In this document: positions 2 to 11,687 of the stretch, in pieces
Position numbering within the stretch: position 1 is the first letter of the stretch
Layout: the number at the start of each line of letters is the position of its first letter
NCBI GenBank assembly: GCA_038227875.1
Contig: JBBRPR010000115.1
Coordinates: 1-11,687 of the forward strand
From: Planctomycetota bacterium
Lineage (GTDB): Bacteria; Planctomycetota; SZUA-567; H5-PLA8
Reading direction: 5' to 3'
DNA: 11,687 nt
Program-made: the position numbers and the translations under genes
Notes under the pieces: model-generated
The model's database searches: none
Told to the model about the DNA's origin: nothing
Seen by the model: only the letters and a program-made list of their open reading frames with translations

Positions 2-367
2 CAGGGACCCAAAGACACCACAAGCGCGCGTATCAATTATTTAGAAGGAGAAATGAGTCCCGATCCCATTACGCGAGTAAATAATAAAAGAGGCGCCTTT
101 AATCTCGCGCTCAATCGAGCAGAATCGCAAAATATCGTTCACGACGCGGCAGCCTTGCTCGCTGAGAATGCACTCGGTAAGGAAGAGCGGGCAAAAATAT
201 TAGATGAGGCGATGCGCGCCCATTACAACCTTAAAGAGTATGAGGCCTCACTTCAGATAGCACGAGAACTTCAAGGATATACCGGTTTACCAGCTCAGGT
301 CGCTGATGGACAAAAATTTGAAGTGATGATAAAAAATCAGGTATTTAATGATATCGAAAAGCCCTAA
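2..367 (+). CDS. 3' end of a hypothetical protein with a TPR-like helical C-terminus (probably starts upstream of the window)
   Basis: The frame is open from base 2 (QGPKDTTSARINYLEGE-M53) to TAA 365-367. The GAAGGAG before ATG53 is only 2 nt from it, too close for an RBS. The C-terminal ILDEAMRAHYNLKEYEASLQIARELQ looks like a TPR-type helix pair. Confidence 0.6.
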   Translation, partial: QGPKDTTSARINYLEGEMSPDPITRVNNKRGAFNLALNRAESQNIVHDAAALLAENALGKEERAKILDEAMRAHYNLKEYEASLQIARELQGYTGLPAQVADGQKFEVMIKNQVFNDIEKP

Positions 368-1809
368 AACGTTTTCTTTTTCTCATCCTCCGAAGGTGCA
401 GGTTTCAAGTCGTTTTGAATTTCCTTCTCTGCCGCCTTTGCTGCTTTACGGACGTTTTCACACTCATCAATTGTAGCGTCTCCTAATAGTCCCAGTGCGC
501 ATTCAGCATTTCGGCCAAAGCCACCTAACAACTCGGATACGTATTGTCTGGTACGGGGATTTCGATACTTTAAAAGATCCTTCACTTTGGATGCGATGCC
601 TTTACTATCGTGAGTTTGTTTTAAAACATTTACAGCCCACTGGTTCAAAATGTTCTCTCTGTCCTTTAGCGCCGAAATTGCTATAGTTTCAATGTCATTT
701 TCTTGCTGTGGAGACAATTTCCAATCTCGAAAGCTCTCAAACACATTGGGAATTTGAATTCGAACCAGGTCTCGGTCATCCTGCAACATTACCAAAAGGA
801 TTGATGTCGGCTCACCCCCTCTAGCCATATCTTTCAATTGATTTATATTCTGCTTAATGTTGTCCGAAAGTAGTGCGAATCGCTGTTTGTTGCCGTTCGA
901 CAACTTAGAAAAAAGTCGCGGCCTTCCGTCAAACAGCTCAGCAGCATCATACAAATCATAAATATCCTCTTTCTCAACTTCGCTTTTTAGAATCGAAATC
1001 TGTAGATCATTTCCCGGAATTTTGACCAACATTTGAATTATTTTCATTTCATGTTTTGGTTCTCGGCGACTCGAATGATACGCTTTGAGCAAGTCTCCAT
1101 ATAAGCTGGGAAAATTAGCGAGCACAGTCTGTCGATTTTCCGGTAATAGCCAAATATCCAGTGCATTGAGAAGTGTGTCTGCATATAGAGAATGGCTTTC
1201 TGACAGCCATTTTATAAGTAATCCAGCAGCCTTTGGACACCCAAATGACGAAACCGCGTAGACCACACCCACACGTTCTACGTCATCCGCGTCTTTCCAA
1301 AATGATTCAAAAAGATCAAGCATCTGGCTCTGAAGGGAAGAATTCAACAGAAGCTTAGGCTCGATCAATGACGGGATCGCGGCAATTGATGCTACACGTT
1401 GTGAGTCCGAGAAATCATAATATCTCAAAAGATGTAAAGTAAGCGTTGCACAACTGAGGTCCGCTTGCCTCCGCCGTTCGAAAATATGAACGGTTTGAAA
1501 TCTCAAAAGATAGGTGTCATTTAACTCAACATCTGCTTTAGCAAGCGAACTTTTGGTTTCCAGATCGGCCAAATGCGAAAGCTTTTCGAACTCTGTGGGA
1601 TGATTCTTCTGATACGTTAGCGCTGATATTAACCACGCGCTATCGCCATCAACCGACGATGCTCCCTGCGAAAGGTAGTGCCTAACAGCTTCCCGGTATG
1701 ACGCACCGTGTGCGATCGCAACTGAATTAATCGATACGTTCTGCTCCGCAGCCTCAATCAACGGAATACCTATCATAATTAAGGCGATCGAATGTAGCAA
1801 AATTTTCAT
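364..1809 (-). CDS. Exported HEAT-repeat (alpha-solenoid) protein, 481 aa
   Basis: Long ORF in AT-rich DNA. N-terminal Sec-type signal peptide MKILLHSIALIMIGIPLIEA|AEQ. C-terminal HEAT/PBS-lyase-like repeats (LLKYRNPRTRQYVSELLGGFG; LLGDATIDECENVRKAAKAAEKEI). Starts 22 nt after the PAD stop. Confidence 0.8.
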   Translation of the reverse strand: MKILLHSIALIMIGIPLIEAAEQNVSINSVAIAHGASYREAVRHYLSQGASSVDGDSAWLISALTYQKNHPTEFEKLSHLADLETKSSLAKADVELNDTYLLRFQTVHIFERRRQADLSCATLTLHLLRYYDFSDSQRVASIAAIPSLIEPKLLLNSSLQSQMLDLFESFWKDADDVERVGVVYAVSSFGCPKAAGLLIKWLSESHSLYADTLLNALDIWLLPENRQTVLANFPSLYGDLLKAYHSSRREPKHEMKIIQMLVKIPGNDLQISILKSEVEKEDIYDLYDAAELFDGRPRLFSKLSNGNKQRFALLSDNIKQNINQLKDMARGGEPTSILLVMLQDDRDLVRIQIPNVFESFRDWKLSPQQENDIETIAISALKDRENILNQWAVNVLKQTHDSKGIASKVKDLLKYRNPRTRQYVSELLGGFGRNAECALGLLGDATIDECENVRKAAKAAEKEIQNDLKPAPSEDEKKKTF

Positions 1810-1831
1810 GGTACACCCTGAATCAAGATTA

Positions 1832-3889
1832 CTAGTGTTTCTTTAATGGTTCTCTTACCACATTTGTCAGACAATGCAATTCCCCGCCGCCCGCATATGG
1901 CCCGCTCGCGTCAACCAAAATTGGAATAATGAAGTCCGGTTTATACGAGTTCGTTCCTGCTATAATGCTCTTAAATTTCTCATCAAAATCCGGCAATCCC
2001 GGTCCACCGATTGTGGCACCAGCTCCCGCATTCGCGGGATAGAAAAATACAAGATCGCCGCTGGATCCCGGAAAAACGATCGGCTGAGAATTGTTGTAGT
2101 CATGCGTTAATTGGGATTCCTTAACGAACATTCCTTGCTGGATTGCAGGGGGATTTCGAATTAGCACGGGCGTGCGAGTGACGCTGGCCGAAATTGGAGC
2201 CGTAGAAAGGGTGCTAACAATTTTAGTGTACACTGAGTCCACTAAAGTTAACTCCTTTCCAAGATCAGTCGTAGCGACAATTGCAGCTTGAGCATCTTTA
2301 TAAGTTTTGAAATTGATTACACTCCCAGGGCCATCAAATGTGGTTCCGGGAGCAACGGCATTTATAACCTGCGACGCGCTATTCGCACCATAATTCGCCG
2401 AAACAAACATGGTGAACCCGCCTTTATTATCGAGCGGGACCACTGTTGCAATCTCATCAATGTGGCCCACTCCAATTCCTGAAGGATCCAGCGTTACCAG
2501 TGCATTCGACGACAGCGTCTGAACCTTTTGTCGAAGAAAGAATTTTACAGCTGTGGTGTTTGCCCTTGTCGTCATTATGTAGCCGTATGGATGCGCTGTG
2601 TCATTCTTAATTGGCGGCAAAACTCCGTATGCCCCCCCTTCATCACCAGCTTGCGCCGAAATAAAATACCAACCAGAGTTGGCGCTTAGTTGCTCCTTAT
2701 CCCACTCACCTAATCCATTCAGTCGACCAAATACGTGCAAAACACTTTCTTTGCTGGGATCTTTGGAAATTTTTCGACAAAATCCAATGATTGTTCGATC
2801 CTGCGAAAAATCCTCTTCGCCATTTGCCTTGGCCTTTATAACTCCTTTTGCCAATTTCTTATTATTAATAATATTTTCCTGAATGGAATCGTGGAATTGT
2901 TCCCCATTATGAGCCCAATCGGAATAAAAAAAGTTAAATTGCACATCAGTAGCAATAGGTTGGGTGTTCGGAATTGCTATAAACGGTACACATAGTAAAA
3001 CAACCGAGCTAGTAAAGGCGGACTGAGGGAATGTCGGCGCCTGGGCAGCCGTATTTTCGACAACCGTTAGGGTGTATTTAACTTGTTCGCCGAATTTTAA
3101 TCCTTCAGCGAGAAGAATGTGCTTTTTACCATCCTTTAAAATATCTGTTACGTCGACAGAAAGGTTTTTCTGATTAGGGCCGAGCAGCATTTTTGCATCA
3201 CCAAGCTTCTTTTCAACATGACCACTTTCTTCTAATTGCAAAACTGGTTCAGCTGCGTCGCTTGGTATGTGAAATACTCGGCTGAGCTGATTTGCGTCAG
3301 AAATCGCTTCTGGACCTTTATCCACCGTTAGAAGAACTTTATTATATTTATAAAACGTATCTGAAATCTTCGGAAGCTCAATTCTTAACTCCGACAAATT
3401 TTTAACATCATCCTTCCCGTTAATAATATCATCATCCATATTGGTTTCAGAAGATTTGGCGTGAGTACCCGTTTGTCCACAATTCACCATTAATAATGCT
3501 CCATTTTTCAGATAGTCCACCGGATTCGACTTGCCTTGAATATCATCGTCCGTAATGACTCCGTCTCGATTCGTATCGGCAAGAATTGATAACCGAACAA
3601 GAGTTACGATGGTCTTTACATCGGTTTTTCCAGTTCGCACTGCCACCACTCTTGCACCATTTGCAGCACTTATTATTATTGGAGCGCCGGCTTTGAATCC
3701 TGGGACACCTTGTTTGAATTGAAATTTTGCTACTGCGTTATTAAATTGAAGAACGCCATCGGAGCTCGCGGTGAAATTTCCTAATGCGGGCACAGGAAAT
3801 TGAGGATTGGGAACTAATGCCTCTTTAATTGCGGTCGCGATTTCTTTTGGTTGTTTAATATCAACCTTCGAGCTTAACACAATCAGCAT
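1832..3889 (-). CDS. Protein-arginine deiminase (PAD, animal/cyanobacterial type: PAD middle domain plus catalytic pentein domain) with an N-terminal beta-rich segment; possibly 5'-truncated
   Basis: Motifs are collinear with human PAD4: SILADTNRDG (3560-3589), GALLMVNC (3479-3502; PAD4 GAILLVNC), FSQD (Asp at 2798-2800; PAD4 WMQD350), GDEGGAYGVLPP (PAD4 LDSFGNLEVSPP), VGHIDE (2453-2470; H471/D473) and GGELHCLTNVVREP (Cys at 1871-1873; PAD4 HGEVHC645GTNVRRKP). ATG at 3889 gives 685 aa, but the AT-rich open frame continues to a junction near 3979, so the start is uncertain. Confidence 0.9.
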   Translation of the reverse strand: MLIVLSSKVDIKQPKEIATAIKEALVPNPQFPVPALGNFTASSDGVLQFNNAVAKFQFKQGVPGFKAGAPIIISAANGARVVAVRTGKTDVKTIVTLVRLSILADTNRDGVITDDDIQGKSNPVDYLKNGALLMVNCGQTGTHAKSSETNMDDDIINGKDDVKNLSELRIELPKISDTFYKYNKVLLTVDKGPEAISDANQLSRVFHIPSDAAEPVLQLEESGHVEKKLGDAKMLLGPNQKNLSVDVTDILKDGKKHILLAEGLKFGEQVKYTLTVVENTAAQAPTFPQSAFTSSVVLLCVPFIAIPNTQPIATDVQFNFFYSDWAHNGEQFHDSIQENIINNKKLAKGVIKAKANGEEDFSQDRTIIGFCRKISKDPSKESVLHVFGRLNGLGEWDKEQLSANSGWYFISAQAGDEGGAYGVLPPIKNDTAHPYGYIMTTRANTTAVKFFLRQKVQTLSSNALVTLDPSGIGVGHIDEIATVVPLDNKGGFTMFVSANYGANSASQVINAVAPGTTFDGPGSVINFKTYKDAQAAIVATTDLGKELTLVDSVYTKIVSTLSTAPISASVTRTPVLIRNPPAIQQGMFVKESQLTHDYNNSQPIVFPGSSGDLVFFYPANAGAGATIGGPGLPDFDEKFKSIIAGTNSYKPDFIIPILVDASGPYAGGGELHCLTNVVREPLKKH

Positions 3890-3978
3890 GTATGTGACGC
3901 CCTTTTCAGAAGGGTTAGTGTCATTAACACCAATAGTGAATACGGGACCCTCAAGGCTATCGGAACTTGGATCTTCGG

Positions 3979-4098
3979 CAGCGGCGTCAGCCCGTCCTCG
4001 TCGAGCGCGTTGACCTGCGCGCCACGTCCGAGCAACAACTTGATCAGTGGAAGTTTGCCGCCGCGCACTGCGTAGTGTAACGCTATTGAATCGAATGA
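3979..4098 (-). pseudogene. Orphan ankyrin-repeat fragment
   Basis: Translates as SFDSIALHYAVRGGKLPLIKLLLGRGAQVNALDEDGLTPL, a textbook ankyrin repeat (ALHYA...G...LIKLLL..GA.VN..D..G.TPL). It is preceded by an in-frame TGA (4099-4101) and similarity stops abruptly after TPL. Confidence 0.8.
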
Positions 4099-4120
4099 TC
4101 AGTCGGGCTCTGCTCTTAGG

Positions 4121-4606
4121 GGCGCGTACATTCGCGGCATCGCGCGCAAGAGCATCAAGATTTCGCCGAAGTATGCGCCGCCTGGAAAACCGCCGCGCTC
4201 GCGCAAAGGACGCCTGAAGGACGCGATCATCTTCGCGGTGGAGAAAAAACAGCAGCGCGTTGTCGTTGGCCCGACGGCAACGGAAGTCGGGCAGATCGGA
4301 CGAACACACGAGCAGGGCGGCACCGAACCGCCGAAAACGAAGAAAGCCCGGAACCCCAACTGGAAACTTGAGGTCGGCGGTCACGGCCCCGTTCGAAACG
4401 ACACGAACGGGGTTGGATTCGCCAAGTTGGAAACGGAAGCCCAGGTCGAACGCGCAAAGAAGATCGCGCCAGCCGTTCAGGCTAAAGAAGCGCAGGCCAC
4501 GGCGCAGACCAAGTCTCGAAAGTACCCTCCGCGCCCGTTCATGGGACCGGCATTCAACATCGCCAAGGAACGCTTGCCCAAGTTGTGGGCAGGCTCGGTG
4601 AAATAA
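4121..4606 (+). pseudogene. 5'-truncated HK97 gp10-like tail completion/neck protein
   Basis: The basic coding frame extends upstream of the track's GTG4238 to GAYIRGIARKSIKISPKYAPPGKPPRSRKGRLKDAIIFAVE and ends in the typical YPPRPFMGPAF motif; HEQGG resembles the family's 'EFG' motif. There is no start codon between TAG 4073 and 4121. It lies directly before the major tail gene. Confidence 0.7.
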
Positions 4607-4621
4607 GAGGAGACCACGACC

Positions 4622-5086
4622 ATGAGTGCCAAACTCGGCATGCAAGCAAAGCTCTACCGCCTCACCGCAGGGGTGCGCGGCGCGTGGCCCGGTTCGGGCG
4701 CGCCCGCGAATCTCGTCGAACTGGGCAACGTGAAGGACGTGACGCTCAATCTCGAAACCGGAGAAGCCGACGTAACGACCCGCGCCAACAGCGGGTGGAA
4801 AGCGACCATCGCCACATTGAAGGAGGGCAGCCTTGAGTTCGAATCCATCTGGGACCCCAGCGACGGCGGGTTCTCCGCGCTCAAGGACGCCTACTTCAAC
4901 AACACACCAGTCGCGTTGGCCGTTCTGGATGGATCGAAGGACGTTGTCGGATCGCAAGGACTGTGGGCGGACTTCAGCGTGACGAATCTCACACGCGAAG
5001 AGCCGCTCGAAGATGCCATCAAGGCCAAGGTCACGCTCAAGCCGACGTACTCGGCCATTCCGCCAGCGTGGGTCACCGTCGCGTAA
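4622..5086 (+). CDS. Phage major tail (tube) protein, 154 aa
   Basis: RBS GAGGAG 4607-4612. Tail-tube-like motifs NVKDVTLNLETGEADVTTRANSGWKATIATLKEGSLEF and FSVTNLTREEPLEDAIKAKVTLKP. Sits immediately before the chaperone and tape measure genes. Confidence 0.85.
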   Translation: MSAKLGMQAKLYRLTAGVRGAWPGSGAPANLVELGNVKDVTLNLETGEADVTTRANSGWKATIATLKEGSLEFESIWDPSDGGFSALKDAYFNNTPVALAVLDGSKDVVGSQGLWADFSVTNLTREEPLEDAIKAKVTLKPTYSAIPPAWVTVA

Positions 5087-5125
5087 CACGGGTCCATCTT
5101 GGAATCGACTCTCACGGAGGAACAG

Positions 5126-5608
5126 ATGCGCACTTTCAAAGACACCGCAGGCCGCACGTGGACGTTGCAGATCAATGTCGACGCCATCAAGCGCGTTCGC
5201 GGTCTGCTGAACGTCGATCTGCTGGAGATCGCAGACGGCAAGCTCATTGAGCGGCTGGCAGGCGATCCGGTTCTGCTCTGCGATGTCGTCTTCGCCATCC
5301 TCAAGCCCGACGCGGACGCACAGCAAGTCTCCGACGCCGACTTCGGACGCGCGATGGGCGGCGACTGTCTGGAACAGGCCACGACCGCCTTCTTAAAGGA
5401 GCTGGCCGATTTTTTCCCCTCGTCGAAGCGCCAGGTGCTGCACCTGGCGCTGGCCAAGCTGCGGGAGGTGGATGCCAAGATCGTGGCACTGGCCGAGAAG
5501 AAGCTATCCAGCCCGGCGCTCGACGCGCGGATCAATACTCTGCTCAAAGACTTTGGCGAACCATTTACGAGCTCGCTGGAATCGTTGGCTGTCCACCCGG
5601 TCAGTTGA
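5126..5608 (+). CDS. Tail assembly chaperone (lambda gpG analogue), 160 aa
   Basis: RBS GGAGG 5116-5120 precedes ATG5126 (MRTFKDTAGRTW...), a better start than the track's TTG5099. Located between the major tail and tape measure genes, with an overlapping -1 frame ORF. Confidence 0.8.
   Translation: MRTFKDTAGRTWTLQINVDAIKRVRGLLNVDLLEIADGKLIERLAGDPVLLCDVVFAILKPDADAQQVSDADFGRAMGGDCLEQATTAFLKELADFFPSSKRQVLHLALAKLREVDAKIVALAEKKLSSPALDARINTLLKDFGEPFTSSLESLAVHPVS
5395..5451 (+). promoter_or_regulatory. Candidate programmed -1 ribosomal frameshift signal
   Basis: SD-like AAAGGAG 5395-5401. In-frame slippery heptamer T TTT TTC 5410-5416. Perfect inverted repeat AGCGCCAGGTGC-T-GCACCTGGCGCT 5427-5451. 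The -1 frame is open from 5251 to TGA 5845-5847. Confidence 0.7.
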
Positions 5609-5847
5609 CCTTGCGCGAACTGCTCTGGATGGCGGAAGCGCGCAGCAAATCGGAATGGGGCCGCGCGTCGGCGCTGCTCGCGCTCATCGCAAACGTGAAT
5701 CGTGATCCGAAGAAGGGCGCTGCGTTCACCCCTTCGGATTTCAATCCGTATGAACGCAAAAACACGGACGTGCCAGTCACGAAGCTAACCGATCTTAGCA
5801 TTCTGAAGTCGGTCTTCGTGGACCGGCACTTGGGAGGAAAAACATGA
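5605..5847 (+). CDS. Tail assembly chaperone C-terminal extension (gpT analogue), probably expressed as a -1 frameshift fusion with 5126..
   Basis: -1 frame relative to the chaperone, with only a weak TTG start and no clear RBS. Protein-like sequence continues upstream of the TTG (LWRTIYELAGIVGCPPGQLTLRELLWMAEAR). Confidence 0.75.
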   Translation: MTLRELLWMAEARSKSEWGRASALLALIANVNRDPKKGAAFTPSDFNPYERKNTDVPVTKLTDLSILKSVFVDRHLGGKT

Positions 5848-6056
5848 GTGAAGAAATCATTCCGGTGAAGCCGGGATACCAGACCACGGAGTTTTGGCTC
5901 TCGGTAGTGGCGCTGCTCTTGGGTCTGGCGCTGGCCAGCGGAGCGGTCCACGACGGAGGCCTCGCTGCGCAGATCATCGGCGGCGTTCTGTCGGTGCTCT
6001 CCAGCCTTGGCTACACGGCATCGCGCACGAAAGTCAAGAGCGCGGGAGGTGAATGA
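5844..6056 (+). CDS. Putative holin, 70 aa, two transmembrane helices
   Basis: RBS GGAGG upstream and ATGA overlap. KPGYQTTEFW motif followed by two hydrophobic segments (FWLSVVALLLGLALASGAV; LAAQIIGGVLSVLSSLGY) and a basic C-terminal tail. Confidence 0.65.
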   Translation: MSEEIIPVKPGYQTTEFWLSVVALLLGLALASGAVHDGGLAAQIIGGVLSVLSSLGYTASRTKVKSAGGE

Positions 6057-6233
6057 ATGAGTCTGATCGTGCAGGCGGTGGTGGGCATCATCGGGATGCT
6101 CATCGAATTGTTCATCCCCAATTCTGTGGAGGTCGCCCGTGAAGTTCATGACAAAGCTGCTCCTTCTTCTGACGTTTACGCTCAACCTTCCCGGTTGCGC
6201 CGTCTCTGCTTCCCGCCCCTTGAAGACGAATGA
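6057..6233 (+). CDS. Small membrane-anchored protein, 58 aa, candidate inner-membrane spanin (Rz-like); absent from the ORF track
   Basis: Strong RBS GGAGGT 6045-6050, 6 nt before ATG6057. Sequence MSLIVQAVVGIIGMLIELFIPNSVEVAREVHDKAAPSSDVYAQPSRLRRLCFPPLEDE has an N-terminal hydrophobic helix and one C-terminal Cys. It fills the gap after the holin. Confidence 0.65.
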   Translation: MSLIVQAVVGIIGMLIELFIPNSVEVAREVHDKAAPSSDVYAQPSRLRRLCFPPLEDE

Positions 6234-6429
6234 AATCACGTGGGCGAAGATGGGCACGCCGGCGCGCATCGTTGACGAGCAGAAAGTTAAAGTGCTGGTT
6301 CCAGATGGGAAGGGCGGGTGGACGCCCGGAAGGGGCAATCTCGCCGGCATGGTCGCCATCGACGAGCCGACGCTGGATTACTACCGCACCGTCGACCGCA
6401 AGCAGCCCCTGCCGGAGCCTAAGAAATAG
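6139..6429 (+). CDS. Lipoprotein, 96 aa, candidate outer-membrane spanin (Rz1-like)
   Basis: RBS GGAGGT 6128-6133, 5 nt before GTG6139. Signal peptide MKFMTKLLLLLTFTLNLPG-C with lipobox-like LPGC. Begins out of frame inside 6057..6233 (95-nt overlap). Confidence 0.65.
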   Translation: MKFMTKLLLLLTFTLNLPGCAVSASRPLKTNEITWAKMGTPARIVDEQKVKVLVPDGKGGWTPGRGNLAGMVAIDEPTLDYYRTVDRKQPLPEPKK

Positions 6430-8439
6430 ATGGCCTCCGCATCGGGTATTCGCGCCGGGCTTGCGTACATCGAACTGTACGCCAACGACGCCCGGCTGGT
6501 CAAAGGACTGAACGCCGCCGCCGCGAAGCTCAAAGCATTCGGGGCGGCCGTGCAGGACATTGGCACGAAAATGTCGCTGGCCGGAGCGGCTATTGTCACG
6601 CCGCTGCTGGCCAGCGCCAAGTCGTTCTCCGATGTCGGTGACGCACTCGACAAAATGTCGGCGCGCACCGGCATTTCCGTCGAGGCATTATCTGAGATCG
6701 GATTCGCTGCCGATCAATCCGGTACGTCGCTGGACGACGTGGAAACCGCCGTACGCAAAATGCAGAAGACCATCGCGGCGTCCGCGGGCGGATCGAAGCA
6801 GGCGATAGCTGCGTTGGCAGAGTTGGGACTTACTGCGGAGCAGCTTCTACGGCTATCCCCGGAAGATCAGTTCACGGCCATCTCCAAGCGACTATCGGAG
6901 ATCTCCGATCCGGCATTGCGCGCGGCCGCGACAATGAGTGTCTTCGGAAAATCTGGCACGGCACTGACGCCCCTGATCGGCGATCTTCAGTCGCTACGCG
7001 CCGAAGCACAGGCGTTGGGATTTACGATGTCCACGGATGCGGCCAAAGCCGCCGCCGCGCTCAACGATGCATTCGGGCGCGTGAAAACTGCCGTGCAGAC
7101 GGTCGCAAACGCCATTGGCGCAGCCCTGACGCCCCTCCTTATAGATGTCTCAAACCAGATCGTGGCAGTTTTGGGCGACATTCGCCGCTGGATTAACGAA
7201 AACAGGGGGCTGATTGTCTCCGCGCTAAAAATCGGCGCGGTGGTAGCTGTCGCTGGAGCCGCCCTGGTTGGATTGGGTGTCGCTCTTGCAACCGCAGGCT
7301 CAATCATTGGCGGCATTGTGTCGGGCATCACGGGTGCCATTTCAGCAATCAGCACCGCCATCACCATCGTCACGTCTTTAGGCCCCATCTTGGCTGCCGC
7401 CGCGTCCGGCATCGCCGCTGTTTTCGGCGCGATCATCACGCCAGCGGGAATCGTCATCGCGCTGCTGATCGGCCTCGCAGCGTATGGAATCTACGCTTCC
7501 GGCGTGGTGGGGCAGGCGCTGGATTACCTCGGCGCGCGATTTGACGACCTCAAAAGCGTCGGAATGGAGTCCCTGCAAGGGATCAAAGATGCCCTGGCGG
7601 CGGGCGATATTTCTTTGGCCGCGCGCATTCTGTGGCTGTCGCTCAAAGCCGCATGGCAGAAGGGCATCTTCGAGCTCAATACCCTCTGGTTGGGCTTCAA
7701 AGAACAGTTCCTGTCCGTCGCCACGGGCGCATTCTACGGAGCCGTCGCGCTCGTCGCCGAAGCGTTCTATGGTTTGAGAACCATTTGGACGCAGACCATC
7801 AACTTCTGGTCCGATGTGCTCGACCGGTTTGCCGGGTTCTTCGTCAAGACCTGGAACGAACTCACCGGCTTTCTCGCCAAACAACTCACCGAACTTGAGG
7901 GCACGTTCGACTCGTCGATCAACGTTACGGCCATCAATAAACAGATCGACCGGGAAACGCAGCAGAAAAATACTCAGGTCTCGCGCCAAAATCTCGACGC
8001 GCGAGTGGGACGCGAAGCGGATTTGCAGGGTATCGAGCAGGAGCGCAAAGGCGTCATCTCTTCCATCGCCGAGATGGCGGGGAAAGAAGATGCCCAGCGC
8101 CGTGCGAAATTTGCGGCCGAACTGACCGACTCCGAAAAGGCGCTCGAAGAGGCGCGCGGCGAATGGAAAGCTGCAATTGAACAGGCGCGCACGCAACGAT
8201 CCGCCAAAGAAACAGAATCAGCCAACCGTGCTCCACTGCCCGAAATCAATCTTCCGGACATCACGCAGCGCGCGCAGTCCGTGCTCGACGTGAGCGGCAC
8301 ATTCAACACTTCAGCCATCGCTCAACTTGGTGTCGGCAGCACCGCGACCGAGCGCACGGCAAAAGCATCCGAAGAGACTGCACGAAACACGAAGCGCATC
8401 ATTCAAAAAATGGACGAAGAAGGAGCGACCTTCGAATAA
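6430..8439 (+). CDS. Phage tail tape measure protein, 669 aa
   Basis: Ala/Gly-rich helical protein with N-terminus IRAGLAYIELYAND and TMP core motifs (LDKMSARTGISVEALSEIGFAADQSG, LSPEDQF, VFGKSGTAL). It has a central hydrophobic stretch and a coiled-coil C-terminus ending ERTAKASEETARNT. Confidence 0.93.
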   Translation: MASASGIRAGLAYIELYANDARLVKGLNAAAAKLKAFGAAVQDIGTKMSLAGAAIVTPLLASAKSFSDVGDALDKMSARTGISVEALSEIGFAADQSGTSLDDVETAVRKMQKTIAASAGGSKQAIAALAELGLTAEQLLRLSPEDQFTAISKRLSEISDPALRAAATMSVFGKSGTALTPLIGDLQSLRAEAQALGFTMSTDAAKAAAALNDAFGRVKTAVQTVANAIGAALTPLLIDVSNQIVAVLGDIRRWINENRGLIVSALKIGAVVAVAGAALVGLGVALATAGSIIGGIVSGITGAISAISTAITIVTSLGPILAAAASGIAAVFGAIITPAGIVIALLIGLAAYGIYASGVVGQALDYLGARFDDLKSVGMESLQGIKDALAAGDISLAARILWLSLKAAWQKGIFELNTLWLGFKEQFLSVATGAFYGAVALVAEAFYGLRTIWTQTINFWSDVLDRFAGFFVKTWNELTGFLAKQLTELEGTFDSSINVTAINKQIDRETQQKNTQVSRQNLDARVGREADLQGIEQERKGVISSIAEMAGKEDAQRRAKFAAELTDSEKALEEARGEWKAAIEQARTQRSAKETESANRAPLPEINLPDITQRAQSVLDVSGTFNTSAIAQLGVGSTATERTAKASEETARNTKRIIQKMDEEGATFE

Positions 8440-9224
8440 TGGCTGGCCAGCTGATCGAACTTTTCAACAGCCGTACTGAAATCTCAGGCGACAAGCCGTC
8501 TGCCGAGTTTCAGTATGTTGCGCTGCAGTGCGCGGATGAGAATGAAGTCCGCACGCTGGCTTATTCAACGTCGCCAGCCGCTTATAGTGGATTGATCCGG
8601 CGCTCCGTAGAAATCTCGGAACGATTGGCGAACGATACATGGAAAGTCGTCGTTCGTTATGACGCGCCGCAGCCCTATGAAGACACGACACCGCAGCCGG
8701 TGTTCTCGTTCGATTCCACGGGCGGCACGCAGCACATCACGCAGAGCATTCAAACCATCAATCGCTACGGCCCATCGGCGTCCACGTTGCTTGGCGGTGC
8801 CATTGGCTACGACGGCGAGAACGTCGCGGGCGTCGACATCACGATCCCTGTCTGGAACTGGCAGGAGACGCACTACCTCACGGACGCCCAGCTCAACACG
8901 CCTGCATACTACGCATTGACCGGCATGGTCAATTCCGATGTGTTCGAAGGCTATCAGCCTGGCGAAGTACTGTTCCTCGGCGCGTCTGGCCAGAAGCGGG
9001 GCGACAGCCGCTGGGAAGTGAACTTCAAATTCGCCGCGTCACCCAACCAAACCGGCATAAGCGTCGGCACCATTACGGGAATCTCGAAGTGGGGATGGGA
9101 CTACCTGTGGGTGCAGTACGGTGAAGACGTGGACAACACGGCCAAAATTCGCATCAAGAAACCCATCGCCGTTTACGTCGAGCAGGTCTACGACGTAGCC
9201 CCGTTCTCCATCCTGGGGATATAG
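8439..9224 (+). CDS. Phage tail-tip protein (distal tail/hub position), 261 aa
   Basis: TAATG-coupled to the tape measure gene. Beta-rich and aromatic-rich (FSFDSTGGTQHITQS, GEVLFLGASG, KWGWDYLWV). Function inferred from position only. Confidence 0.7.
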   Translation: MAGQLIELFNSRTEISGDKPSAEFQYVALQCADENEVRTLAYSTSPAAYSGLIRRSVEISERLANDTWKVVVRYDAPQPYEDTTPQPVFSFDSTGGTQHITQSIQTINRYGPSASTLLGGAIGYDGENVAGVDITIPVWNWQETHYLTDAQLNTPAYYALTGMVNSDVFEGYQPGEVLFLGASGQKRGDSRWEVNFKFAASPNQTGISVGTITGISKWGWDYLWVQYGEDVDNTAKIRIKKPIAVYVEQVYDVAPFSILGI

Positions 9225-9225
9225 C

Positions 9226-10098
9226 TTGAAAAAAGTTGCGTCGGGACAACCACTGCGTATTCCCGCATCCACGTTCAACACGATGGTGGACGCGGCGAGC
9301 GATTTTCAGCGGCGCTCGCTCAATCGTGGCTCCAGTGCCGTGCCGCCTGACACCAAAAATGGCATCATCATTGTTCGCAATCAGTCGGGATCGGATCGTG
9401 ACCGTTTCGATGTGCTTGGTCTATCGACCGTCATCATCACGCCGACACAAAACGCGCAGAAGTTCGCCAGCCGCTGGGCGCTCAACGCGGCGCTTCCCGC
9501 CGCCACACACACTGGCAAGTTCGCGATTCTACAGGAGCCCATCAAGAGCAACGCTTTTGGACTCGCGATGATTGTCGGCGTTTCGCCGGTCTACGTCACG
9601 CGACCGACGGGAGAAACGTCTGAAATCGCCGGTCTCAAGGTAGGGCAAACCTATCTTGAAGCCGGTCTCACGGGCGCGCAGATTTTATGGGAGGATTCGG
9701 GGGGAACGACGCCGCATCTGGCATTGGTGCGCATGCCTGCCGCACTTGATCTGACGATCATCCGCATGCGCGTTACTTCGGTGCAGGGCGATTATCTTGT
9801 CTGCCAACGTTGGACCGGTTCTGCGTGGTCGGCAACGAATGAAAACGTCGTCAAGCCCTATCTGCTGCGCACGTCCGGCACGTCGCGCAACGGCATTACT
9901 TACGTCTACTCGAATGGTTTCACGCGAACGGCGACGCAGGGCGCCAGCAACGAGACACAGGTCATCGTGCCATCGTACTACACCTCCGGCGACGAGGTCT
10001 TCGCCGCACCCGTGAATTACACCGGTGTGGTAGTGGCAACGAACGAACTCAAGCTCGTCGATATCAACGCCGACGGCCGCGCGTGGGCGAAACAGTAA
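9226..10098 (+). CDS. Phage tail-associated structural protein, 290 aa
   Basis: TTG start 1 nt after the previous stop, with GGGGA 6 nt upstream. Coding-like codon usage. Apparent two-domain beta-rich protein ending DINADGRAWAKQ. Confidence 0.7.
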   Translation: MKKVASGQPLRIPASTFNTMVDAASDFQRRSLNRGSSAVPPDTKNGIIIVRNQSGSDRDRFDVLGLSTVIITPTQNAQKFASRWALNAALPAATHTGKFAILQEPIKSNAFGLAMIVGVSPVYVTRPTGETSEIAGLKVGQTYLEAGLTGAQILWEDSGGTTPHLALVRMPAALDLTIIRMRVTSVQGDYLVCQRWTGSAWSATNENVVKPYLLRTSGTSRNGITYVYSNGFTRTATQGASNETQVIVPSYYTSGDEVFAAPVNYTGVVVATNELKLVDINADGRAWAKQ

Positions 10099-10754
10099 TG
10101 GCGACACCATTCGACTCATTCAACCGCAGCCCATTGGATGCGTTCATCCAGAGTCCGCTGCTGGCGCGCGGCGCACCTTCTGGCGGATCGTTCAGCCGCA
10201 CGGCGGCGCTTTCGTTCGCGATCACGCCGACGCCCAGTTACGTGAAATACCCTCAATACTCGCTCTTTATTCCGAGCACGCGGTTCATTCAGCGCTACCA
10301 GAACAGCGGCGGGTCGCTGGTCTTTCTCGATGAATTCACACTCGCCGGCGGCGGCGACATGCTCGTTGGCGCGGGGAAGAGCGGCACGCTCTGGCGGATT
10401 GAACGTGCGCGTACCAGCGTGGCGACAGTTCCCGCCAGCGCGCCTGCAAGCGCGTACTGGCGCGTCCGTGTGCGGGCATCCAATCCGCCGAACGGAATCG
10501 CCGCCGATATTTACATGGCTCACGAGTCGTCGGCATGCACATTTAATGGTCCCGCATCCGGCTGGTATCTCGGCAAGGCAATTCCCAACGTGGACAACTA
10601 CTTCAATCCTGGCGCGCTCATTCCGGGCCAGCGCTACTACCTTTTCTTCCAGGGCGAGAACGACTGGTCTTACATGAACATTTCGAACACGCAGTTCTAC
10701 CAATTCCATGCCAGCAACGACGGCACGGCCATCCGTTTGGAGACTTTCATATGA
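10098..10754 (+). CDS. Hypothetical tail-tip protein, 218 aa, possible receptor-binding/variable module
   Basis: TAATG coupling puts the start at 10098 rather than GTG10083. The stop overlaps the next gene (ATGA 10751-10754). Aromatic-rich beta-type C-terminal region. Confidence 0.65.
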   Translation: MATPFDSFNRSPLDAFIQSPLLARGAPSGGSFSRTAALSFAITPTPSYVKYPQYSLFIPSTRFIQRYQNSGGSLVFLDEFTLAGGGDMLVGAGKSGTLWRIERARTSVATVPASAPASAYWRVRVRASNPPNGIAADIYMAHESSACTFNGPASGWYLGKAIPNVDNYFNPGALIPGQRYYLFFQGENDWSYMNISNTQFYQFHASNDGTAIRLETFI

Positions 10755-11236
10755 TCGGCTTCGGTCTTCGCGGGATGTTCAAGCTGAAGCATTTTCGCTC
10801 CGGCGTGTTGATTGCCGAGCACGCGTTCCCAAACGCCGTCGTGGATCTTGGTGCGAATCTCCTGCTTGAGACGATGTTTCGTGGGGCCGCGCAGCGGAAT
10901 TGGTACATCGGGCTGATCAATAGTGGGCTCATATTGAACAATGCCGACACGATGGGTTCGCACGCAGGTTGGACAGAGCTTGCTGCGTACTCGGAAGGCG
11001 CGCGACCGCAGTGGATCGTGAATAATCCGGCGGCAACTCGGCGGCTCGTCAACGCAGGGCCCGATGCAGGCATCTTTCACTTCACGGCGGCGGCAACACT
11101 GGCAGGCGCGTTCCTATCGGACGATGCCACGAAGGGTGGATCGGCGGGCGTGCTTTTCTGCACGGCAACTGTCACAAGTCTAAGCTTGGTGGCTGGCGAT
11201 GCGGTGACGGTCAGTTATCAATTGCAGATCACTTAA
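10751..11236 (+). CDS. Phage minor tail/tail-fibre-associated structural protein, 161 aa
   Basis: Recognisable phage structural family pattern: N.VV..G.N.LL...F, WYIGLI, ADTM.SH.GWTE...Y...RP.W, GAFL.....KGG..GVLF, GD.VTV.Y. Confidence 0.75.
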   Translation: MIGFGLRGMFKLKHFRSGVLIAEHAFPNAVVDLGANLLLETMFRGAAQRNWYIGLINSGLILNNADTMGSHAGWTELAAYSEGARPQWIVNNPAATRRLVNAGPDAGIFHFTAAATLAGAFLSDDATKGGSAGVLFCTATVTSLSLVAGDAVTVSYQLQIT

Positions 11237-11476
11237 TGCTGGACCGAGCCGCACCGAACTAATAGCGCCTGATTGCGCCTGCCCATGTACAAACACGCTG
11301 CCGTACAACCGCTCTTCACCGCTGGAAATTCCACTGGGATCGTTCGCGGTTGATACGTTCGTGCGTGGCAAGAGGACGGCGAAACGCTGCCGACGAACGG
11401 CTCCGTCTGGCATCCGCCGTCATCGAACGAAAACACAGGCAACCTCTACTTCGATTTCAAGGTGTACTATGATTGA
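11236..11476 (+). pseudogene. Probable degraded (deleted/frameshifted) tail gene
   Basis: The coupled ATG at 11236 stops after 8 codons. One frame reads TELIAPDCACPCTNTLPYNRSSPLEIPLGSFAVDTFVR and another continues WQEDGETLPTNGSVWHPPSSNENTGNLYFDFKVYYD-TGA 11474-11476, overlapping the next start. This is the only large gap in an otherwise tightly packed operon. Confidence 0.5.
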
Positions 11477-11687
11477 TTGCGTCTCAATGGCAGGCGTCTT
11501 TTGTGTGAAGCACATCCGTGACGGCGTAGTTCTTGCTGAGCATGAGCTGCGCAACGCGATCACGAACGTCGGCAAGACCGACATGCTCAATGACTACTTG
11601 GGCACCGGGGGCCTCGCTGGCGGTCAGTGGTTCTTCGGGCTGATTGACAACGCCGCCTTCAGCAGCACCAACGTCGCAGACACGCTC
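11469..11687 (+). CDS. Partial phage structural protein, paralogue of 10751..11236 (runs off the window)
   Basis: AAGGTG then ATG11469: MIDCVSMAGVFCVKHIRDGVVLAEHELRNAITNVGKTDMLNDYLGTGGLAGGQWFFGLIDNAAFSSTNVADTL. It aligns with MIGFGLRGMFKLKHFRSGVLIAEHAFPNAVVDLGANLLLETMF...WYIGLINSG...NADTM. Confidence 0.8.
   Translation, partial: MIDCVSMAGVFCVKHIRDGVVLAEHELRNAITNVGKTDMLNDYLGTGGLAGGQWFFGLIDNAAFSSTNVADTL

Follow-up and report, generated by a model that had tools for sequence, protein, structure and literature searches.

The window analyzed here, i.e., the whole 11,687-base contig JBBRPR010000115.1 of a draft metagenome-assembled Planctomycetota genome (GCA_038227875.1; 9.34 Mb in 176 contigs), carries a peptidyl-arginine deiminase (PAD) gene whose product retains the complete catalytic tetrad of the human enzymes and has lost most of their calcium-binding residues. 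Judging from alignments with human PAD4 and with bacterial relatives, this loss of ligands around an intact tetrad is real and confined to one lineage. Human PAD2 and PAD4 are described as having an absolute requirement for calcium (PMC3559651, PMC8599989). We see an even chance that the protein encoded in the window no longer relies on the calcium switch and would be catalytically active in its absence.

The gene lies on the minus strand, in a reading frame that is open from 5326 to 1832 and encodes 1164 amino acids as a whole. The portion of this frame upstream of a step in GC (guanine-plus-cytosine) content near base 3950 translates into arginine-rich nonsense, and the first plausible PAD start is the ATG at 3887-3889, which gives a protein of 685 amino acids. 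An earlier reading of the same DNA (here, the original prediction) had extended the gene only to 3589; this position is a TCA codon where homology to PAD_M begins, and the true start is probably ATG 3889. Upstream of Met1, no significant homology to P0004 or P0049, two relatives considered below, was found. The Pfam PAD domain (PF03068) scored 35.8 and 35.1 bits in two scans, above the cut-off of 25, in a match that spans only model positions 3-214 of 395, the C-terminal half of the domain being recovered through the alignment with P0049 and the GELHC motif. PAD_M (PF08527) scored 29.4 and 31.8 bits in the two scans, also above its cut-off (24.8). No Pfam match to PAD_N (PF08526) was obtained in the 685-residue protein at E ≤ 1, nor one to PF04371 (PAD_porph/agmatine deiminase) at E ≤ 0.01 or E ≤ 1, and an NCBIfam scan gave no name to either the PAD or its downstream neighbor. 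Residues ~67-100 of the N-terminal domain align with P0049. By its sequence, the gene product is a strongly diverged PF03068 deiminase composed of PAD_M and a catalytic domain, without PAD_N. The gene and its relevant segments are as follows, in order along the protein.

1832..3889, minus strand: PAD gene, 685 codons plus stop (stop at 1832-1834), encoding a ~100-residue N-terminal domain, PAD_M, and the PAD catalytic domain.
3590..3889, minus strand: N-terminal ~100 residues ahead of PAD_M, with no Pfam match.
3542..3577, minus strand: Ca6-type loop DTNRDGVITDDD, kept; D105-T-N107-R-D109-G-V111-I-T113 aligns with PAD2 DADRDGVVE.
3392..3484, minus strand: degenerate Ca3/Ca4/Ca5 loop NCGQT...NMDDD...KDDVKNLS, with D155/D157/D165/D179 changed to G/T/N/N and with N153, D168, and D176 kept.
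2783..2809, minus strand: FSQDRTIIG, with D350 (D364) and Q349 kept and with E351R, E353I, and W347F.
2702..2743, minus strand: VLHVFGRLNGLGEW, the equivalent of the PAD4 D369-R374 loop (Ca2 ligands and substrate-binding arginines), with no acidic ligands and one Arg (R389).
2621..2638, minus strand: GGAYGV, replacing the family motif GGNxE; G422 occupies the E411 position.
2453..2470, minus strand: VGHIDE, with catalytic H471 and D473, placed by the alignments.
1871..1885, minus strand: GELHC, with catalytic C645, placed by the alignments.

The correspondence with human PAD4 was established by four alignments, with residues numbered on the 685-residue protein: a phmmer search against solved structures, which matched the human PAD4 chains at E 4e-6; a MAFFT alignment of 37 rows; a MAFFT L-INS-i alignment of 75 rows; and a 64-row profile, which matches PAD4 across PAD_M and PAD_C at E 9e-139. 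The PAD4 ligands were taken from the list in PMC3559651 and the figure legend of PMC13023937. In all four alignments, catalytic D350, H471, D473, and C645 of PAD4 correspond to D364, H476, D478, and C673, all kept. The remaining positions, from PAD4 to the window's PAD, are as follows.

Q349 (Ca1): Q363, kept.
E353 (Ca1): I367.
E411 (Ca1): G422.
E351 (Ca2): R365.
D369/S370/N373 loop (Ca2): no acidic residue remaining; alignment ambiguous.
N153 (Ca3-5): N136, kept.
D155 (Ca3-5): G138.
D157 (Ca3-5): T140.
D165 (Ca3-5): N150.
D168 (Ca3-5): D153, kept.
D176 (Ca3-5): D161, kept.
D179 (Ca3-5): N164.
D388 (Ca4): Asn.
W347: F361.

These results bear out the by-eye alignment on which the original prediction was based. 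The catalytic tetrad that it had recognized in the motifs FSQD, VGHIDE, and GELHC (D364, H476, D478, and C673) was recovered in the four alignments, each of the eight substitutions that it had listed (D155G, D157T, D165N, D179N, E351R, E353I, E411G, and W347F) was reproduced by the four methods, and the fuller alignments with PAD4 and relatives did not restore acidic ligands at any of the named sites. Of the Ca1 residues of calcium-switched PADs, i.e., PAD1-4 and the cyanobacterial three-domain PADI (Q349, E353, and E411), only the Gln is kept. The Ca2 set (E351, D369, S370, and N373) is not preserved either, the positions of the PAD4 Ca2 loop being V, F, and L or G here, plus R365, with the qualification that the loop alignment is ambiguous; R389 pairs with PAD4 R372 by phmmer and with the R374 column by MAFFT. 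In the Ca3/Ca4/Ca5 acidic cluster, four carboxylates have been replaced and D388 is Asn. The PAD_M loop from N136 to S166 differs in charge from that of its relatives, with a net charge of -3 versus a mean of -7.2 (standard deviation, 2.6) in 57 of them.

How unusual these replacements are was judged against a set of homologs. When 1.84 billion representative proteins were searched exhaustively with HMMER, 45 matches were obtained at E ≤ 0.001, one of which was the protein itself; the best nonself match had an E value of 4.5e-15 and 29% identity. No match was found in a word-indexed homolog search with the PAD, and a single-protein search for related loci in genome and metagenome contigs found none. 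The query, the 44 HMMER matches, and 30 PAD frames of the phylum and of closer relatives made up a comparison set of 75 rows; percentages refer, column by column, to the other 74 rows, gaps being left out. Asp occupies the D155 column in 81% of the other rows, the D157 column in 90%, the D165 column in 93%, and the D179 column in 92%; Glu occupies the E353 column in 81% and the E411 column in 75%, with Asp at the latter in a further nine rows. Glu is found at the E351 column in only 9 of the 74 rows with a residue there, and Phe at the W347 column in 31 of 74. By this comparison, E351R and W347F are ordinary among bacterial PADs. Not every item listed in the original prediction is therefore unusual.

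In a quick maximum-likelihood tree of 60 rows (15 short or motif-less rows were omitted, and P0049 replaced its fragment P0017), the query fell within a supported clade of 10 (SH-aLRT, 96) together with P0004, P0013, P0049, and six others. In the eight other clade members that were tabulated, the D155, D157, D165, D179, and E411 columns are all D or E (the E411 column being D in two), and E353 is kept in seven of the eight. The nearest full-length relative, P0049 (894 amino acids), aligns over query residues 9-685 (BLASTP E 2e-24) and, in the pairwise alignment, retains the N-x-D-x-D motif, the subsequent aspartates, QDDCE, and GGNIE. Since both the clade mates and P0049 retain the ligands, the loss is specific to the query lineage. 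P0004 carries Ala at the E353 position and retains the PAD_M acidic cluster.

Calcium ligands are also scarce in a minority of other family members. The Ca1 carboxylates were tallied over 72 other rows, leaving out L001 (a fragment) and L035 (poorly aligned): both were kept in 63, one was lost in 2, and both were lost in 7, namely P0038, P0045, L004, L005, L006, L029, and L033, all of which keep the tetrad. In six of these seven, the D155/D157 pair is also missing (replaced, or the region is absent). This tendency of the Ca1 and D155/D157 sites to be lost jointly is consistent with a calcium-free form of the fold being viable, and the seven Ca1-less members may represent calcium-free PAD lineages, of which we found no description. 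They also mean that the window's PAD is not the sole candidate calcium-free member, which lowers the uniqueness of the gene. L004, L005, and L006 share their order or family with the window's genome.

One calcium-binding feature has been left in place. In the family consensus of the Ca6-type loop, D is found in 48/56, N/D in 49/56, R in 50/56, G in 50/56, and D116 in 40/52, and the query matches each of these. Six acidic residues are also still present in the PAD_M loop. D125 and E131 are given as Ca6 ligands in PMC8826395, where a D125N change is judged compatible with binding, and according to a review of PAD2 the Ca1 and Ca6 sites are always occupied, with Ca3-5 and then Ca2 forming the switch (PMC8599989). 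The protein may accordingly still carry one structural calcium at the Ca6 loop, without Ca1 and the switch sites.

A possible mechanism would run as follows. The ligand changes, in which the Ca1 carboxylates have become Ile and Gly and the four Ca3/Ca4 carboxylates Gly, Thr, Asn, and Asn, with the Ca2 ligands absent, would have arisen in a protein still under selection, which would therefore no longer make use of the calcium switch. Side-chain packing and lysine and arginine residues would then hold together both the active-site cleft and the interface of PAD_M with PAD_C; the candidates are I367, Y421, and R365 around the former Ca1/Ca2 sites and, in the former acidic loop, K145, K159, and K163. 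Such a protein would carry out peptidyl-arginine deimination without calcium activation and would hold no more than a single structural calcium, in the Ca6 loop.

The PAD gene sits between a downstream gene of its own orientation and a region of very different composition. The neighboring features are as follows.

364..1809, minus strand: HEAT-like gene, 481 amino acids, with an N-terminal hydrophobic signal-like segment, beginning 22 nucleotides after the PAD stop.
3960..4098, minus strand: high-GC remnant without a start codon, with one repeat that we take to be ankyrin-like, its motif having been recognized by eye only; it was located from a translation in six frames and from the changes in GC, and lies between the 43% GC island and the breakpoint of the prophage.
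4121..11687, plus strand: remnant of a siphovirus-type tail module (Pfam and PHROGs), comprising a 5'-truncated neck gene, tail tube, tape measure, and distal tail genes.
4622-5086, plus strand: tail tube gene (Pfam and PHROGs).
6430-8439, plus strand: tape measure gene (Pfam and PHROGs).

The assignment of the downstream protein is a distant one: HEAT_2 scored 24.6 bits in Pfam, under the cut-off of 27.7, the atlas features of the protein are nearest to HEAT clusters (0.94, 182 shared), a PADLOC scan gave only a weak HEAT-type match, and the word-indexed homolog search found only the protein itself. To see the arrangement in context, we computed 27 downstream open reading frames (ORFs) beside other PADs and dropped nine as distant or plainly of another kind; the 18 adjacent ones, plus one beside the second PAD of the window's genome, made up the 19 that were run through Pfam. 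Thirteen of the 19 matched HEAT_2 at E ≤ 0.01, five of them above the cut-off, and the PADs of those HEAT pairs retain their calcium ligands. The original prediction had taken calcium independence to fit the need for a dedicated inhibitor. Secreted HEAT-repeat genes also follow PADs with all calcium ligands, and therefore the pairing lends no support to an inhibitor required by calcium independence. Moreover, hhalign detected no homology between the window's HEAT-like protein and a profile of 15 PAD partners (E 0.15).

In the probable source run, region 130-1800, which holds the HEAT-like gene, has a depth of ~18 versus 12.4 and a second variant with several base differences; no second variant was seen for the PAD gene. 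Convergent with the HEAT-like gene is a low-GC ORF at 2-367 (plus strand, open at its 5' end), whose weak RadB/RecA-like match (E 6e-4) falls far short of the cut-off.

Bases 1 to ~3950 of the window are at 41 to 47% GC, in a genome with a mean of 59.6% in which only 11 of 4,583 two-kilobase windows fall below 45%. According to a survey of bacterial PADs, their genes normally track genome GC (bioRxiv 10.1101/2020.07.16.207027), and a 43% GC gene in a 60% GC genome therefore looks horizontally acquired. On the other side of the GC step, from ~41% to ~62% near base 3950, IMG/VR relatives of the prophage (76 to 96% identity; loci L047-L050) match only from 4120/4121 on and have other phage DNA upstream. 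The neck gene at the breakpoint encodes 194 amino acids in L050, of which ~33 codons are missing in the window, and the left arm of the tail module is absent. It is at this same breakpoint base that contigs from two further runs diverge. The region is a recombination scar beside a dead prophage. No DNA match was found between the window and phage records, nor any protein match between the PAD and phage records; an Rfam scan of the window gave nothing, a tRNA scan gave none, and no repeats flank the island. In run X1, parts of 3992-4205 are matched by other contigs before these diverge; the piece at 3960-4098 is probably repeated elsewhere.

Low-GC DNA occurs at other places in the genome, which has 33 stretches below 47% GC, several at contig ends (C27, C40, C52, C73, and others; loci L039-L046). 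One such stretch, on contig C81, holds the genome's second PAD (L001:1489-2040, minus strand), which is cut by the contig end and of which the C-terminal 183 amino acids, with 67 bits to PF03068, remain; it is followed by a 253-amino-acid signal-bearing protein (731-1492, minus strand) without a family match. No similarity was detected between the two PADs or between the HEAT-like protein and the 253-amino-acid protein. The other low-GC islands hold an AAA_21/DUF4435 defense-like ATPase pair, an integrase-like gene, and an FGE-sulfatase domain, all unrelated to the PAD; such contents are as expected of acquired islands.

A composite made in assembly, i.e., a low-GC PAD segment and a high-GC prophage joined in silico only, or an ORF produced by sequencing errors, is suggested by the sharpness of the GC step (41% to 62% at ~3950), by the draft nature of the metagenome-assembled genome (88% complete, 4% contamination), and by run X2, which shows the two parts only on separate small contigs. 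We regard such an artifact as highly improbable. A Logan contig of 4101 bases from the probable source run covers 1771-5871, and so bridges the junction, with 0 differences and at a uniform depth of 12.4 (the next contig has 12.8); the identical 1164-residue frame is present in a second assembly; and no differences were seen in the PAD gene pieces of runs X2 and X3, with identical pieces found in runs from two studies. The island-prophage join is probably real. In any case, the protein sequence would be unchanged.

That the PAD is functional is supported by its 685-codon frame, which is open in AT-rich DNA (43% GC), and by the fact that, despite its very long branch, it retains the tetrad and three quarters of the most conserved columns (31 of the 42 in which at least 80% of the other rows agree). 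The pattern is also nonrandom: the query deviates at 5 of 8 calcium-ligand columns versus 6 of 34 other columns (Fisher P = 0.02). Neutral drift over 6 of 10 ligand columns would call for far more divergence than an open frame survives, so the ligand loss most likely predates any inactivation. A number of observations weigh against an active enzyme without a switch. In PAD4, changing D155 to Ala, Glu, or Asn is reported to lower kcat/Km from 20.8 to 0.02-0.05 s-1 mM-1, and D179N has a kcat/Km of 0.04 s-1 mM-1, D179A being also almost dead (PMC3559651); because these ligand mutants are nearly inactive, an active enzyme here would have to work without the switch. The enrichment of deviations at calcium columns is only a moderate signal, because ligand sites that belong to one metal cluster depend on each other. 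The end branch of the query is long, at 1.87 changes per column versus a median of 0.66. P0004, the relative ranked first by phmmer, carries Asn in place of the catalytic His, which makes it a possible pseudoenzyme within the query's clade and may mean that the clade is drifting away from catalysis. No signal peptide is evident on the 685-residue protein, although the product of the neighboring gene and several clade mates carry one. The 5' end of the gene is ~60 nucleotides from a GC junction flanked by gene remnants, and given this proximity the PAD may lack part of its 5' region or not be expressed. Finally, some calcium could still be bound by Asn and Thr side chains in combination with D152-D154 and D160-D161.

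Much of this evidence would also fit a pseudoenzyme, i.e., a PAD fold without catalysis that could act as a binding or scaffold protein, as PADI6 does in animals, or else a 5'-truncated, unexpressed remnant of an exported PAD on the low-GC island, an alternative that is possible, with chances clearly below even. Mammalian PADI6, the one characterized PF03068 member with most calcium ligands lost, keeps 7 of the 16 PAD4 calcium residues and is described as having no reported activity (PMC10542454), a precedent that, like the near-abolition of PAD4 activity by D155 and D179 changes, counts for loss of function here, as do the His loss in P0004, the long end branch, and the lack of a signal peptide versus the signal-like N termini of the relatives P0049, P0006, P0010, and P0022. 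For a remnant in particular, the GC junction lies just upstream of the ATG, beside the presumably ankyrin-like remnant and the truncated prophage gene, and a simple scan upstream of the PAD found no sigma-70-like promoter. Against both stand the intact 685-codon frame in AT-rich DNA, the intact partner-like gene 22 nucleotides downstream, and the identical copies in runs from two studies, as well as the retention of the tetrad and of 31 of 42 conserved columns despite ~75% sequence divergence, whereas PADI6 has lost its Cys; moreover, no homology to P0049 or P0004 was found upstream of Met1, which leaves a 5' truncation conjectural.

Quite unlikely, in our assessment, is an enzyme that is still calcium dependent, using fewer ions or sites rebuilt from the Ca6 loop, D152-D154, D160-D161, E417, and Asn/Thr oxygens. 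In its favor, the Ca6-type loop is intact, N153, D168, and D176 are kept along with the six acidic residues in the PAD_M loop, and the Asn residues that replace D165 and D179 have a carbonyl oxygen able to ligate calcium; in addition, the PF03068 enzymes with assayed activity that are covered in PMC8826395 (PAD1-4 and that of Cyanothece) all need calcium. However, the Ile and Gly in place of the Ca1 carboxylates are unable to ligate, D155 is Gly, V, F, L, and R occupy the Ca2 ligand positions, a loop net charge of -3 could not neutralize three calcium ions, and neither D179N nor D155N is reported to rescue PAD4 activity (PMC3559651). To return to the active, switch-free deiminase, a fuller version in which its control has passed to the exported HEAT-like protein (as activator, inhibitor, or chaperone) and in which it is one of several independent calcium-free bacterial lineages appears rather doubtful.

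Compared with known systems, the window's PAD shares with human PAD4 and PAD2 (PDB 1WD8, 1WDA, and 4N20) the PAD_M and catalytic domains and the residues D350, H471, D473, C645, Q349, N153, D168, and D176, and with PAD2 the conserved Ca6-type loop. It differs from them in its ~20 to 25% identity, in having no PAD_N, and in the replacement of E353, E411, D155, D157, D165, D179, E351, and D369/S370/N373, D388 being Asn. A natural member of the family that keeps the tetrad without Ca1 and Ca3/Ca4 would reveal which contacts can replace calcium ions. This is pertinent to PAD activation at cellular calcium levels, which is described as an open question (PMC9174705).

Closer in architecture are the two-domain bacterial and fungal PADIs (PMC8826395) and the PAD of Streptomyces albulus citrulassin biosynthesis (bioRxiv 10.1101/2020.07.16.207027), which consist of PAD_M and PAD_C without PAD_N. 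The two-domain PADIs are reported to lack Ca2 and Ca4 in general and to conserve Ca1 and Ca3 fully (PMC8826395). The window's PAD resembles them in the absence of the Ca2/Ca4 ligands and in the D125-to-N form of the Ca6 loop, and departs from them in having lost Ca1 and Ca3 and in adding a ~100-residue N-terminal domain; its 43% GC in a 60% GC genome also sets it apart from bacterial PADs, in which gene GC is reported to track the genome. Since the absence of Ca2/Ca4 is general in two-domain PADIs, the novel element is the loss of Ca1 and Ca3.

The PAD and secreted HEAT pairs of the same phylum (L010-L032) likewise have a PAD gene followed by a gene for a signal-bearing helical-repeat protein; their PADs keep the ligands, whereas the window's downstream protein does not match their partner profile (hhalign E 0.15) and has no relatives. 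Mammalian PADI6 is also a PF03068 member with most calcium ligands lost (7 of 16 kept), and differs, according to PMC10542454, in having lost the nucleophilic Cys, with no reported activity, whereas the window's PAD has the whole tetrad. If inactive, the latter would be a bacterial counterpart of the PADI6 pseudoenzyme.

If active without calcium, it could serve as a calcium-free citrullinating reagent. Among the matches listed in a literature search, calcium-independent peptidyl-arginine deiminase activity was found only for the enzyme of Porphyromonas gingivalis, PPAD (PF04371), which belongs to an unrelated family. PPAD shares its superfold with the window's PAD, is likewise a bacterial peptidyl-arginine deiminase, and is described as working without calcium; the window's PAD, which has no PF04371 match, would extend this to PF03068. 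Were the window's PAD one of several independent calcium-free lineages, calcium dependence would no longer count as an intrinsic property of the PAD fold. The value of the gene lies in pointing to natural calcium-free PAD candidates that are open to direct assay.

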